DNA of 51,462 nt, from NCBI GenBank assembly GCA_950072105.1, contig CATMOE010000022.1:1-51462 (forward strand), given 5' to 3'. A program made the translations under genes and the position numbers. The notes beneath the pieces were generated by a model. The model ran no database searches, was not told where the DNA came from, and saw only the letters and a program-made list of their open reading frames with translations. This DNA comes from an uncultured Dehalococcoidia bacterium. Its GTDB lineage: Bacteria > Chloroflexota > Dehalococcoidia > Lucifugimonadales > UBA3495. Positions 28,543 to 33,579 of this stretch are shown here, piece after piece. Position 1 is the stretch's first letter. Every line of letters starts with the position of its first letter.

Positions 28543-29135
28543 ATGGCTGAAGTCAAGAAAAAGATCCTGGTTATCGACGACGATGACGACATCCGCCTTT
28601 TTGTGTCAACCCGTTTGGAACGAGCCGGGTATAACACTGTCGTCGCGGCCGGGAGATGTCCAACTTGCCGGTTTTGATGTTGACGGCGGCGGCCCTAGAA
28701 AGAGACAAAGTTAGAGGATTGAGGGGAGGCGCGGACGACTATATCACCAAGCCGTTCTCAAGCGAAGAGTTTCTCGCTCGCGTCGAGACATCCCTCCGGC
28801 GAGCCTCGATAACTCCTGAGGGTTCGGAAAGCTTGGTATACCAGGATGCCGAAATAACCATCGACTATCCCAGACACAAAGTGGCCGTGCGAGGGCAGAC
28901 GATTGAACTTACGCCAACGGAGTTCCGCCTTCTGGCTACCCTAACGGAGAACGCGGGCCGGGTGCTGAGCCAAGATCAGTTGCTGGACCGCGTATGGGGA
29001 CAGGATTACGTCGAATCCGCTGATGTAGTCCGCCTGTACGTGGGATATCTTCGCCGGAAGATAGAACTTGACCCCAGCAGTCCCAAACTTATCGAGACTA
29101 GCAGGGGCTTCGGCTACCGGTACCGGAAGCCCTAA
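28543..29135 (+). pseudogene. OmpR-family response regulator with internal deletion/frameshift
   Basis: MAEVKKKILVIDDDDDIRLFVSTRLERAGYNTVVA joins out of frame to REMSNLPVLMLTA...GADDYITKPF...RGFGY; the phospho-acceptor segment is missing. Confidence 0.85.
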
Positions 29136-29270: not shown

Positions 29271-30404
29271 CTAGGAAATCCGCTCCATGTCGAAGCCGTA
29301 CAATCGGGCCGTGGTTGTTCCTACTATCTGCGCTTTTTCGTCTTGGGGGACTCCTTCCAGGATACGGTCCAGAATCTCCCGGGACTTGGGGAAAGTGGAT
29401 TCGGCGTGGGGATAGTCTGATCCCCACATGAGTTGGTCCACGCCGATGACGTCCCGCAGCCTGATTCCGATGTCGTCTTCTTGGAAGCTCAGATACACGT
29501 TGCTGTGGAAGAAATCGCTGGGCAAGACGCCGTTTTTGAACCGGTATGTTGCTTCCTCGTGTCTTTCCCGGTAAGTGTAATCCATGGTGCCGAGCAGGTG
29601 GGGTACCCAGGCAAGCTCGAACTCTACGACGGCCAGCTTTAGCTTTGGATATCGCTCAAATACACCGGCGAATATCATGTCGCACATCGAAGTAGAGGGC
29701 CAGAATACTTTGTTGGCACGACCGCTGGCGTCCCGGATGTTCGTGTTTCCCTCGCCCCGGCTCTTCCCTTCCCTGCGGGTGGCGGTGTGCAGGCTCAGTG
29801 GCATGTTCAGGTCTTGGGCAGCGGCCCAGAAGGGTTCATACTCCGGACTGTCGTAGCGGCGCGCTTCCCACGGGTATTCGGATATCATCCCACCTACCAG
29901 ACCCATTTTCGCGCTGCGTTCCAGCTCCCTCATTCCATCGGCGACATCGTCAAGATTGATCATGGCGATGCCCTTGAGCCGGTCTGGGTTGGTGCCGCAG
30001 AAGTCGGACAGCCAGTCGTTGTAAGCCCGGAATACTGCGGACATCAACTCCGAATCGGCGATCTTGAAGTAGAAAAGGCCCTGGGAAGGGTACAGCACTT
30101 CCCCGGAAACACCGTCGATCTCCATGTCCTTGATATGCTGGTCCGGGTCGTATCCCCCGGTGTGGACATCGTCGAACCGGCCGTGGGCTGAGATGGTCTC
30201 CGGGGCTTCGAAACGGGCGCCGGCGTTAGAGATGAGGCCGATACCGGCGATCAGATGATCGCCTTCCACCACCAACTGATCAACATCGCCGACCCGCTCC
30301 ATGTGGGGGGCCCGATCGCGAAACTTGGCGTCGATCCTCTCGGTCCACAGGTTGGGGGGCTCGAACACGTGGGAGTCGGACGAGATAACGATTTCTCTGG
30401 CCAT
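29271..30404 (-). CDS. Amidohydrolase_2 family protein
   Basis: SSDSH, RAYNDWL, LSLH, WGSDYPHAES; AGGAGGAG RBS. Confidence 0.92.
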   Translation of the reverse strand: MAREIVISSDSHVFEPPNLWTERIDAKFRDRAPHMERVGDVDQLVVEGDHLIAGIGLISNAGARFEAPETISAHGRFDDVHTGGYDPDQHIKDMEIDGVSGEVLYPSQGLFYFKIADSELMSAVFRAYNDWLSDFCGTNPDRLKGIAMINLDDVADGMRELERSAKMGLVGGMISEYPWEARRYDSPEYEPFWAAAQDLNMPLSLHTATRREGKSRGEGNTNIRDASGRANKVFWPSTSMCDMIFAGVFERYPKLKLAVVEFELAWVPHLLGTMDYTYRERHEEATYRFKNGVLPSDFFHSNVYLSFQEDDIGIRLRDVIGVDQLMWGSDYPHAESTFPKSREILDRILEGVPQDEKAQIVGTTTARLYGFDMERIS

Positions 30405-30474
30405 GGCTTAATCTCCTCCTGGTAGCCCGTGGGTAGTGATACGACGAGGGTATTCTACCATCCAGACCTGAACA

Positions 30475-30714
30475 CTAACCCGCCGCGAGTGCCGACAGAC
30501 GCTCACTGCGATGCCGCCGCCAAAAACGCTGCAACGCTACCAACGCCCACAAGGTTTCGATGACCGTGATGGGGTAGGCCGCGACCAGGCCGCTGTAGGC
30601 GGCGGTGAGGGCTGATCCACCGGCGAATATCAGCACCATCCACTTGGACCGGGGCTCCAGCCAGTAAGCCAAAAACATGATGGATACGGCAATGACGCCG
30701 AACACTGTCAGCAT
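30475..30714 (-). CDS. Small three-helix membrane protein
   Basis: 79 aa, hydrophobic; AGGAGG RBS; directly downstream of the UU gene. Confidence 0.75.
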   Translation of the reverse strand: MLTVFGVIAVSIMFLAYWLEPRSKWMVLIFAGGSALTAAYSGLVAAYPITVIETLWALVALQRFWRRHRSERLSALAAG

Positions 30715-30751
30715 CTATACCTCCTAAGCATCGAGCAATTGATCGGGGCGT

Positions 30752-31093
30752 TTAAATGGGGCTCATTCCGAATACGCCGGTGAATCGAAGGGTCCAGAGA
30801 GAAACTGCCAGCGCCGTCGATATCATCAGCATCGTGAAGGAACGGCGGCTCCATGTAGAGCGCCGCCACCTCTTCCAGCTAGCGACTTCAAGATACCAAC
30901 CCCTGCTGAGCATGATCAGTGTGACCGCTAGGAAGGGCCACGTAAGCGCCTGCAACGCAGGCGCCGTGGCCAGCCCGGCCGGGGCGCCGCCCAGGAGGCC
31001 GAGCAAGCCAGGAACCACTCATCACCAGGGTAACGGCAGCAGACCGCTCAACAGGGCGACAAAGGGTTTTTCAACGTGGATGAACTTTTGCAT
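30752..31093 (-). CDS. MerT-like membrane protein, predicted selenoprotein with tandem Sec-Sec (W-U-U)
   Basis: AGGAG RBS, ATG 31093, MQKFIHVEKPFVALLSGLLPLPW-TGA-TGA-VVPGLLGLLGG...WPFLAVTLIMLSRGWYL; the TGA pair (31019-31024) sits where MerT has the TM1 Cys-Cys. Confidence 0.75.
30967..31010 (-). promoter_or_regulatory. Candidate bacterial SECIS for the UU gene
   Basis: TGGC-tt-GCTCGGCC-tcct-GGGC-[GGC]-GCCC-c-GGCCGGGC-tg-GCCA; G-starting loop 30 nt after the second UGA. Confidence 0.55.
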
Positions 31094-31267
31094 ATGGAGT
31101 GCTCCTGAGGTGAGACCAAATTTTGGAACCTATGCTTTACCGGGCCAAACAGGCGTTAGGGAAGTATTCGGTTGTCAGGCAACCAAAGCCACTTGCGAGC
31201 GTTGCATTCTCTTAGGCCCTCGTCATGGATCCTCAGATAGGATTGCCATCTATCGGCCTCGGTTCTA

Positions 31268-31385
31268 TGTCATTCCGACACCAGCCCTTCCGCTGAAGGG
31301 CGGCGAGGAATCTCAGGCCTGGATTTAGCGGTCACTTGAGATTCCTCGCTACGCTCGGAATGACAGAGGGGCGCTCGAAATGACA
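31268..31385. repeat. REP-like/miniature inverted-repeat element (GTCATTCCGA...GCGAGGAATCT type)
   Basis: TGTCATTCCGA/TCGGAATGACA terminal inverted repeats, internal GCGAGGAATCTCA/TGAGATTCCTCGC, extra partial end. Confidence 0.75.
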
Positions 31386-31412
31386 TCGCTGGCGATACTA
31401 GTCGCATAAGTA

Positions 31413-32450
31413 CTATCCGCCGCTCCAGATGATTTCTTTGGTGACCGACTTGGTGTTGCCGCCGAAGGTCGGTATCCATGACGAGTGTTTGCCCGGTCCC
31501 CCAAGTACGATGACGACCAGATCATCTAGGGTGCGGATCATGGGAATCGGACCGTCCGGGATGCGCTGCATCCGTTCCATCAGGGTATCGTGGGTGTAAC
31601 GTTCCAGGGGGATCTTGGCCCGTTGGTGCAGCCATTCGACGACATCTTTCTTGCTTAACCCGTCGCCGCTGATGGTGGCGGCGTGTTCCGGACCAAGGGC
31701 CAATAGGGTTTCACCGCCCGTGTAGGCGTTGTTGGCGCCGGTTACGGATATCGCTCCCGCCACGATGGTGAGGATATCATCGGCCGAACGGCCCGAATGG
31801 TCGTTGATGTTGTGAGGTGGTTCCCCGGCCATCACCGTTACAGCGCTTTGGTCCGGACGGAAACCTCGCTCAACATGTAGAGGTTCCCACGGATTCTCTT
31901 CCTCGTTCTCCGCCACGCAGTAGCTGAATTTGGAAGGAGCGCCTTGGGTGGACATGTCGCCCACCCCGGGGTAAGCCCCACCAACATTTAACAGGACCAA
32001 GCGCATGGCCCGGCCAATGGTCGCGTTGGCTCGCCAACCCGGCCCGAACGACCCAGATGAGTAGTTCATACCCAGGGCCTCCCTGATGGGGCCATTGATT
32101 ATCATAAGGGGGGCGCAGGGATGGGTAGTGGCCTGAATGGCGTAAAGATTGAAGACCGGGTCCGCGATCGCTTCCACGGCGGCGATCAACACCGGCAGGT
32201 ATTCGGGGAGGCATCCGGCCATCACGGCATTGATGGCCAGCTTTTCCACCGTGGCCGCGCCCCAAATGGGAGGAATCTCGGCTACCACGTGGTCTGAGGC
32301 CAGGCTGGTGGCGGCCAACATTGCCTCGACTCGTTGCAGCGTCGGCGGCACTATCGGCAGTCCGTCGGACCAGCCACGGTCCAAGTAAAGGCGCTGTACC
32401 GCCTCGAAATCGTCGGCGATCTCTATCTGCGGCGAAACTAACGATGGCAA
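31413..32450 (-). CDS. Conserved hypothetical protein of the type I recall beside UGSC-family genes
   Basis: GWSDGLPIVPPT, TVEKLAINAVMAGC, NATIGRA, ENEEENPW motifs; GGAGG RBS before TTG. Confidence 0.8.
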   Translation of the reverse strand: MPSLVSPQIEIADDFEAVQRLYLDRGWSDGLPIVPPTLQRVEAMLAATSLASDHVVAEIPPIWGAATVEKLAINAVMAGCLPEYLPVLIAAVEAIADPVFNLYAIQATTHPCAPLMIINGPIREALGMNYSSGSFGPGWRANATIGRAMRLVLLNVGGAYPGVGDMSTQGAPSKFSYCVAENEEENPWEPLHVERGFRPDQSAVTVMAGEPPHNINDHSGRSADDILTIVAGAISVTGANNAYTGGETLLALGPEHAATISGDGLSKKDVVEWLHQRAKIPLERYTHDTLMERMQRIPDGPIPMIRTLDDLVVIVLGGPGKHSSWIPTFGGNTKSVTKEIIWSGG

Positions 32451-32581
32451 TCGACGCCCTCCATCTGCGGGGAAAAATGAGCCGGACTCCCCCGGCGGTT
32501 TGGGACAATATAAAGCTTAGATAGGCGCAGCGTATGGTCCTTAGACAGTATCGGGACGAACGGGTGTTGAGGTTTTCTGCC

Positions 32582-32603
32582 GCTCGTGGTGAGCCTGTCG
32601 AAC
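32582..32603. repeat. Partial REP-like element (GCTCGTGGTGAGCCTGTCGAAC)
   Basis: Recognisable intergenic repeat motif; single copy in this window. Confidence 0.45.
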
Positions 32604-32670
32604 TACCCGTTGCGATCGACTCCCGGACCCTTCAAGCGAAGTTGGCGGGGCCGTGCCGTCTTGAGTTGAG

Positions 32671-33219
32671 TTACTCCTGAGCAGTTAAACCAGCGATCAC
32701 CTGCTCCAAAAGGGCCTCCGCCTTGGCCTCAACCGCATCGGGTTTTAGGCCTCCAAGTGGATGGAGAGCGATGGCCATGGGCAATTCGGGCATTCCCAGG
32801 GCGCGGCGCTCGACTTCGCCCAGGACCTTGAATCGGTGGGTGCAAACTGTAACAGTGGGAACACCGCGACGCTCCAGTTCTACTGAGTCGTGGATACTCC
32901 ACGACGTGCAGGACCCTCAATCACCTAGACCGACGATCGCTACATGGGCTGAGGTGGTCAACTCGTCCATGACCTCCTGCTTGGCCGCGATCGACGCCGA
33001 GGGTTTGCGCTGGTGGACGGCGTTGCTGATCTCATATTTCTGGCGGAGCAACTCCTCCAACCGGGCGAAGAGAATGTCGCCGTTGGGTTTACTGTTCCAA
33101 AGAAAGCCTACGGATCTGCCCCGAAGATCGGGTGGCCGTGGCGCCATGGTGTGCCGCAATTCTCGAGGCGGAGCGGTGGGGTCCAAAACAAAGATGGAGC
33201 CGGTTGCCGTGGTGGTCAT
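32671..33219 (-). CDS. UGSC-family selenoprotein (182 aa, Sec at in-frame TGA 32917-32919)
   Basis: MTTTATGSIFVLDPT...NSKPNGD...[30 protein letters not shown]...HPLGGL...TAQE*; frame stays open across the TGA; GGAG RBS. Confidence 0.92.
32880..32911 (-). promoter_or_regulatory. Bacterial SECIS element of the UGSC gene
   Basis: CTGC-ac-GTCGTGGA-[GTA]-TCCACGAC-tca-GTAG; perfect 8-bp upper stem, G-starting loop 19 nt after the UGA. Confidence 0.75.
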
Positions 33220-33280
33220 TATGTCGCTCCAATCGTTCCGGTGGGCCGGAACCATTTATAGCTGGAACACTTATAGGGAG

Positions 33281-33309
33281 AGGCTATTCCGTAGGCCAAG
33301 CCCTGTCAA
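33281..33309 (-). promoter_or_regulatory. Sigma70-type promoter upstream of the UGSC gene
   Basis: TTGACA-N17-TAGCCT. Confidence 0.6.
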
Positions 33310-33579
33310 GGGCGGGTAGCCGAGGCGCGACGTGGCGTCCGGCCGCTTCGTTATCCATGCTCGGATTCTCTCAATCGAGTTTGTTCCAGGCGGTCGACTC
33401 CGGGACCGTTGAGGGGTTGCGCCTTGCGCCGCACGATTCACATCTTGCCGGATCCAACTGCCCGCGTAACGATTGACGCAGGCCTGCCGATGGGAATCGT
33501 GGCGGTTGTACGGCTAATGATATCTGCTAAACTATCGTAACTCGTGGTCCACTGACGAGATGGACTCCGGTAGACCACG

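Follow-up and report, generated by a model that had tools for sequence, protein, structure and literature searches.

We analysed a 51,462-nt window from an uncultured Dehalococcoidia bacterium (contig CATMOE010000022.1 of GenBank assembly GCA_950072105.1, positions 1 to 51,462), in which five consecutive minus-strand genes encode a selenoprotein of the UGSC family, its partner, a small membrane protein (referred to here as gene 3), a 79-residue membrane protein and an amidohydrolase (Table 1). We consider it reasonably probable that gene 3 encodes a MerT-type protein with two adjacent selenocysteines (Sec-Sec) in place of the metal-binding Cys-Cys pair, that a two-hairpin signal serves its decoding, and that the gene is a metal-cassette remnant behind the UGSC pair. 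A first-pass annotation of the sequence had described the five open reading frames and three in-frame TGA codons in two of them (one in the UGSC gene and two in gene 3); both descriptions hold, and its selenocysteine reading of all three codons is supported. Bacterial selenocysteine insertion is held to depend on a hairpin set at a short, fixed distance downstream of every UGA, which makes the decoding of two UGAs in a row look difficult.

Tandem TGA codons in gene 3

When TGA is read as selenocysteine (U), the gene 3 product contains LPLPW-UU-VVPG. Among 60 relatives, 13 strong matches were found in 12 genomes (window genome included), all with TGA-TGA (13/13), and three further weak matches are not family members. 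A class-wide sample added gene 3 from 3 of 400 genomes. Species genomes, when scanned, yielded 38 gene 3 loci, some of them from genomes already among the 60 relatives; these 38 loci were picked by a peptide pattern overlapping the second hairpin described below. The relatives carrying gene 3 belong to Chloroflexota/Dehalococcoidia, including SAR202, and TGA-TGA is present in all 42 copies read without presupposing these codons (37 + 5), across Dehalococcoidia. The copies share 47-96% identity, with conserved residues on both sides of the TGA-TGA, including the N-terminal 23 residues. In 38/42 copies the TGA pair is preceded by a start codon at a distance of 22-23 codons, and a motif resembling a ribosome-binding site was found in 34/42. 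The ratio of nonsynonymous to synonymous substitution rates (dN/dS) was 0.17 and 0.19 against two same-genus genomes, and its family-wide median was 0.30 (128 pairs) for the region beyond the hairpins. These results show that gene 3 is under purifying selection.

A profile search of 1.84 billion proteins gave 44 matches, 19 of which are full-length homologues with PWCC in the UU columns; these 19 score 26.6-46.5 bits against a profile in which both residues were masked. Gene 3 thus has in-frame TGA aligned with Cys between conserved flanks, which is one of the criteria for a selenocysteine gene. As for a Cys-Cys form of the Dehalococcoidia subfamily itself, the pattern [LM]PLPWCC was found at none of the 38 loci. 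The family is invisible to annotation; database entries for gene 3 either start behind the TGA pair, with 86-88 residues, or misread the pair as Trp-Trp. One database protein (P0033) reads LPLPWCWVIPG; the Trp after its Cys could stem from a misread TGA, which would make it a Cys-Sec intermediate.

The window genome carries the machinery for which the first-pass annotation had proposed a check, since selA, selB and selD each exceed their cut-off and a single tRNA-Sec (selC) is encoded. Across the 39 genomes that carry gene 3, selA is present in 36, and selB in two of the other three. The selD gene (G000:C60:2148-3071) has an in-frame TGA of its own, followed after about 30 nt by a hairpin with a GUC loop. 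At the RNA level, a near-identical gene 3 sequence is present in marine metatranscriptomes, RNA-library contigs span the double TGA in 7/8 runs, and no variant at that position appears in the one variant table that was complete.

The selenocysteine insertion sequence (SECIS) of eukaryotes lies in the 3′ untranslated region, and therefore UGA spacing is no obstacle to an algal Sec-Sec; the bacterial SECIS lies within the coding region beside the UGA. According to the accessible text of PMC7539508, algal PDI_e, which has a GUGUU motif and no bacterial homologue, was the first protein reported to contain consecutive Sec-Sec. Like that of gene 3, the algal Sec-Sec was predicted from sequence; unlike gene 3, PDI_e is eukaryotic and has a thioredoxin fold. 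No UU motif appears in Table 1 of a 2026 prokaryotic catalogue of 119 families (PMC13188914), and the sections available of PMC2398784, PMC9312934, PMC13326102, PMC12195606 and PMC10778597 hold no bacterial Sec-Sec case. Among the literature matches listed, algal PDI_e was the only case and no bacterial Sec-Sec or tandem UGA was found; the content of BSepDB and the supplements, which could include this family, lay outside that search.

Two hairpins behind the UGAUGA

In the window fold, a first hairpin (H1) occupies offsets 14-57 and a second (H2) offsets 59-79, counted from the first U of UGAUGA. The first-pass annotation had given each gene one downstream hairpin; the hairpins are real and beyond chance, and gene 3 has two in tandem instead of one. 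RNAalifold recovered both stems from 32 copies. Their covariation score, which kinship among the sequences can inflate, was reached by none of 500 shuffles and by none of the slid controls, and pairing was 84.3% compared to a maximum of 50.5% in slid controls. When 43 genes were recoded synonymously, the median z was -2.6 for H1 and -3.2 for H2, and three downstream control windows gave -0.6, -0.07 and +0.11, which removes the protein sequence as an explanation of the hairpins.

The triloop of H2 formed in 43/43 local folds. The Leu47 codon is TTG in 43/43 genes (genome share 0.25) and the Arg48 codon is CGG in 26/26. One H2 pair is C-G in 23/43 and U-A in 15/43 (38/43 together), a swap that takes about nine changes on the tree, at least three to four of them forced by well-supported branches. 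The Cys-Cys homologues served as a control family: the median z was -3.31 in the 43 UU genes vs -0.03 in 38 distinct Cys-Cys genes, and a G-U-N triloop hairpin was found in 33/43 vs 2/38. These results show that the conserved downstream hairpins are absent from the Cys-Cys homologues. Because TGA-TGA and the two-hairpin signal are present in every copy examined, two neighbouring selenocysteines are likely; by the standard criteria for selenocysteine, gene 3 very probably encodes Sec-Sec.

The ordinary SECIS elements of the window genome have G-U at positions 23-24 in 10/12 UGSC paralogues. For comparison, G23/U24 is given for the SECIS of E. coli fdhF in the accessible text of PMC8659212, and in the bacterial consensus the apical loop contains G and lies 16-37 nt from the UGA (PMC13188914, section 5). 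H2 shares with that consensus a stem that follows the UGA and carries a small G-U loop, and the UGSC SECIS fits it exactly. H2 differs in its spacing, its loop lying 65 and 62 nt from the first and second UGA, beyond the 16-37 nt rule, and in the conserved 44-nt hairpin in between. When the 44 nt of H1 are subtracted, the H2 loop falls at offsets of 24 and 21 nt, with 22 for an ordinary SECIS of this genome. We tentatively propose, at slightly less than an even chance, that gene 3 encodes a natural bacterial Sec-Sec dipeptide, that a relay SECIS breaking the 16-37 nt rule decodes it, and that the pair forms a vicinal diselenol metal site in a membrane helix of ocean Chloroflexota. In such a relay, H1 would form at the mRNA entrance of the ribosome and loop out its 44 nt, which would bring the G-U-U loop of H2 to an effective 24 nt for the first UGA and 21 nt for the second, bracketing the normal 22. 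As the ribosome moves on by one codon and nibbles only H1, H2 would stay intact and could keep SelB bound. If true, a relay SECIS would be a template for adjacent selenocysteines in recombinant proteins, and the question of adjacent selenocysteines is directly testable by reporter, since 43 natural alleles exist, the Cys-Cys genes provide a matched control and the two-hairpin signal is defined.

Other ways of handling the UGAUGA were weighed against the relay. Given Sec-Sec, H1 might itself be the SECIS, with one element per UGA, or H1 alone might decode while H2 pauses the ribosome. The G-rich apex of H1 lies 30-34 nt from the first UGA, inside the 16-37 nt range, and fits the published consensus in 30/43 copies, the window included, so that a spacer role is not unique for H1. 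This apex is variable in position and sequence, its apical helix is 59% paired and its G's coincide with Gly codons, and it is H2 that has the strict triloop, the invariant codons and the compensatory pair; a SECIS in H1 is thus a serious contender that we hold to be somewhat improbable. That the UGAs are true stops, leaving a 23-codon leader and an 87-residue restart or serving as a selenium-sensing switch, appears highly improbable. Databases do list the downstream piece of 86-88 residues as a protein, and codon 26 is GTG in 23/43 genes, but the other 20 have no common start codon there, neither TGA is ever replaced by TAA or TAG, the Cys-Cys homologues run through uninterrupted, and the overlapping ATG frame can be as short as 10 or as long as 200 codons. 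Stop-restart at TGA-TGA was rejected on codon 26, the continuous homologues and the variable frame. A code with TGA as Trp is unlikely, and was likewise rejected, because the homologues carry Cys and no tRNA-Trp(TCA) was found.

Kinship with MerT/MerF and metal cassettes

Direct family assignment of gene 3 gave nothing in Pfam, PDB sequences or plasmids. With the Cys-Cys homologues, 14/19 match NF033560 (E 3e-9 to 9e-3), the best scoring 37 vs a cut-off of 130. In a joint profile, for which 500 shuffles per protein served as controls, a true merT_RC607 protein scored 37.8 bits (shuffle maximum 11.1), MerF 16.2 (8.3) and one MerT 13.3 (10.0); the profile left MerC, CcdA (-6.4 bits) and S. aureus MerT unseparated from their shuffles. 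PF02411 searched over 401 genomes of the phylum gave three weak matches, none of the gene 3 family. The MerT/MerF proteins share with gene 3 their size, about three hydrophobic segments, a first segment in which xxP comes after a vicinal pair, and, at some of the loci, a position beside merA, MerR or HMA genes; gene 3 differs in having UU for CC, in the missing second Cys pair, in often standing without merA, and in falling below all curated MerT cut-offs (PF02411, NF033560, NF010314 and NF033556). Taken together, these comparisons suggest that gene 3 joins the MerT/MerF group through its Cys-Cys relatives, as a PWCC/PWUU family of its own, and that it is a probable mercury or soft-metal transporter, which supports the MerT-like soft-metal role put forward in the first-pass annotation.

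Metal genes accompany gene 3 in many genomes. Within 5 kb of the 38 loci, a metal gene was found at 22, with MerR at 11, GDCCVxC at seven, ArsR at four and CsoR with CopA at four. A merA-like gene was present at 9/38 (seven at a value of at least 65%, one fragment and one non-MerA paralogue); six of the neighbouring MerAs and that of locus L028 passed the TIGR02053 cut-off, and all of these end in Cys-Cys-Val-Glu. Gene 3 immediately follows merA in 5/38 loci and in L028. The 46 Cys-Cys loci, many of which are short and some near-duplicates, have MerR at 19, HMA at 12, CsoR at nine, CopA at six and MerB at four. Through gene 3, selenium is tied to the mercury/copper cassettes of Dehalococcoidia, SAR202 among them.

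Selenolates bind Hg(II), Cu(I) and Ag(I) more tightly than thiols do. In the gene 3 protein, the selenolate pair where the first membrane helix begins may bind Hg(II), Cu(I) or Ag(I), mercury being the likeliest and Cu(I)/Ag(I) possible, and the captured metal would be passed to MerA or a chaperone where one is present. In the window, gene 3 would have reached its place behind the UGSC pair as the remnant of a metal-resistance cassette. In the accessible text of bioRxiv 10.1101/2022.07.06.499078, MerT and MerP deliver Hg(II) to MerA, and a MerT group with a CU motif (e.g. WP_250634603.1) is described; Table 1 of PMC13188914 lists a putative mercuric transport protein (PF02411) with one Sec. 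These predicted MerT-family selenoproteins, including NF045683 (MerT_CopZ_Se), have Sec at the membrane Cys pair as gene 3 does, with one Sec where gene 3 has two adjacent ones. Gene 3 gave no match to NF045683, and two Cys homologues matched it weakly (E 3e-4 and 8e-3).

Several observations weigh against this account of gene 3. The case for selenocysteine in its product is made from sequence, and some copies are broken, with internal stops in L004 and L033 and a frameshift in L016/L057. The H2 loop is UUU or CUU in 5/43 copies, and since the search pattern overlaps H2, amino-acid conservation there is partly circular, codon choice being unaffected. The window protein gave no Pfam match, and its match to NF033556 had E 0.01 and 15.5 vs a cut-off of 180. 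With the UU-only profile, 174 and 492 of about 500 shuffles equalled the two Gram-negative MerTs tried; the hhalign probability was 23%, and 4% with the pair masked. The protein has neither the second Cys pair of MerT/MerF nor any other Cys, and its two AlphaFold models are low-confidence helical bundles (pLDDT 61 and 67) for which Foldseek found no match. In the available flank of 16/38 loci there is no recognised metal gene. No merA over the cut-off was found in three genomes of the window genus (completeness 85-95%), and there the gene 3 protein would therefore be a scavenger or a servant of another metal pathway.

Further genes were seen around these loci. In mer cassettes, a TlpA-like protein with an in-frame TGA (L028:4497-5036 (+)) is membrane-anchored with FSFPG-U-PTC, and has no NCBIfam match at 1e-25. 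Directly upstream of gene 3 in L021 (8234-8980 (-)) and L048 lies a rhodanese-CBS gene with two in-frame TGAs five codons apart (VY-U-HDSA-U-DMSP) and a GUG-loop hairpin about 23 nt from the second UGA. In L038, L039, L042, L065 and L069, gene 3 or its cassette is just downstream of the same cinA-like gene, and these loci show a stepwise loss of ArsR and merA, which looks like an insertion site with decay. The Cys-Cys PWCC family (L084-L127) has no Pfam model and recurs with HMA, NHL-repeat and Phenol_MetA_deg (PF13557) proteins; these neighbours sit behind MerR or CsoR, apparently as an unnamed metal module.

Other functions and the five-gene arrangement

Two other accounts of what gene 3 does were considered. 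The Sec-Sec could be a membrane redox centre, a vicinal diselenide relaying electrons to a TlpA-like partner in the manner of CcdA. A TlpA-like protein with an in-frame TGA is near gene 3 in 7/38 loci, the protein has no second Cys pair to hand metal on, and the gene persists without merA; however, the profile matches MerT/MerF and not CcdA, TlpA and CcdA occur within an annotated mer operon too, and gene 3 stands directly beside merA and metal sensors, and we regard a redox centre as unlikely. The first-pass annotation had proposed instead that all five genes form one selenium-dependent operon handling a soft metal(loid) or organometal. In its favour, a second genome keeps the same strand and order at 92% DNA identity, a third genome of the genus is consistent with this order, broken between contigs, and one locus of another genus (L023) keeps gene 3 and the small gene 6.4 kb from an orthologue of the amidohydrolase. 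Of the four junctions, three are spanned by RNA-library contigs, namely those between UGSC and partner, between gene 3 and the small gene, and between the small gene and the amidohydrolase; neither an internal promoter nor an internal terminator was called ahead of gene 3. Gene neighbourhoods differ across genomes, however. The UGSC and partner pair has 12 copies in the window genome, and gene 3 follows the orthologous pair in only 2/30 best loci, the window genome and one same-genus genome; UGSC is within 5 kb of gene 3 in 5/38 loci (two lineages), one of which repeats the window order and four of which form one clade, and at none of the 46 Cys-Cys loci; the amidohydrolase, whose family has 16 tblastn matches in the window genome, is within 5 kb of gene 3 in 2/38. 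That the UGSC pair, gene 3 and the amidohydrolase make up a single system is thus left unsupported, and an operon of this kind is distinctly improbable.

No gene set recurring across genera, as expected of a conserved selenoprotein operon such as SAO or Tso, was found in these neighbourhoods. The linkage of the UGSC pair to gene 3 is kept within the genus and nearly absent outside it; since it is rare in other genomes, the outcome outside the genus comes close to the lack of linkage that the first-pass annotation had itself named as speaking against its proposal. The gene downstream of the orthologous UGSC pair varies widely across the 30 best loci, three of which had less than 700 nt downstream. 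In two inspected loci of the four-locus clade, a different UGSC paralogue is present and three unrelated genes, which we take to be tlyA, a rhomboid protease and cinA, intervene before gene 3. Taken together, the neighbourhoods of the gene 3, Cys-Cys and UGSC loci led us to reject the five-gene conserved system, which is largely refuted; the cluster looks like a local arrangement and not a conserved unit, and the five-gene system itself adds little.

The UGSC protein, with U-G-S-C and a score over the NF041046 cut-off, is a plain member of its family (NF041046/PF24696) with no difference from it, and its link to gene 3 is local. Close relatives of the partner are present in 75/150 family genomes, and neither UGSC nor partner has a relative of solved structure. 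Atlas look-alikes of the partner and of the 79-residue protein are unnamed. The 79-residue gene accompanies gene 3 in 7/38 loci, on either side, and its product is a member of an unnamed family that is widespread (28 Atlas matches, score 0.94). In L065 (1165-2832) and L069, a UGSC paralogue runs past the TGA into the partner domain as one 446-residue frame.

The promoter-like sequence reported upstream of the UGSC gene was found there, and both gaps, of 220 and 319 bp, were confirmed to be filled with dispersed repeats (41 and 19 blastn matches in the genome). A consensus promoter scanner did not call the UGSC promoter and called none before gene 3. Nevertheless, TTGAC-N17/19-TA...T precedes the UGSC orthologue in 21/27 loci showing UGSC, whatever follows. 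RNA-library contigs, which cannot show strand or single transcripts, end at 33255-33271 in four runs, with 33306-33486 uncovered. Among the contigs listed, none bridges the partner-gene 3 junction; because the repeat breaks assemblies, a missing contig there is no evidence. Rfam gave nothing at gathering level. The UGSC pair is a separate multi-copy unit with its own promoter, from which read-through into gene 3 is possible.

Table 1. Positions of the genes and signals of the five-gene region within the window
Feature	Position	Strand	Details
Promoter TTGACA-N17-TAGCCT	33281..33309	-	
UGSC-family selenoprotein (U101)	32671..33219	-	182 aa; PF24696 176.6 bits; NF041046 142.4 vs cut-off 125
UGSC in-frame TGA	32919-32917	-	motif GD-U-GSC
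UGSC canonical SECIS	32887..32905	-	8-bp stem, GUA triloop, G at position 23 (U of UGA = 1)
Second dispersed repeat, 220-bp gap	32536..32611	.	
UGSC partner	31413..32450	-	345 aa (start codon not certain); matches nothing in Pfam, NCBIfam or PDB
Repetitive extragenic palindromic (REP)-like repeat, partner/gene 3 gap (319 bp)	31265..31386	.	palindromic
Gene 3	30752..31093	-	113 codons; membrane protein of about three helices, PW-UU-xxP, probably divergent MerT/MerF-type
Gene 3 tandem TGA-TGA (codons 24-25)	31019..31024	-	predicted Sec-Sec
Hairpin H1	30967..31010	-	44 nt; conserved lower stem, variable apex; candidate spacer or first SECIS
Hairpin H2	30945..30965	-	9-bp stem, GUU triloop (30956-30954); candidate SelB-binding SECIS loop
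79-aa membrane protein	30475..30714	-	no Pfam/NCBIfam family
Amidohydro_2 protein	29271..30404	-	multi-copy family, local neighbour

Beyond the five genes, a response-regulator gene at 28543-29135 (+) of the window is seemingly split, with its N-terminal piece at 28543 and the remainder in another frame from 28656.

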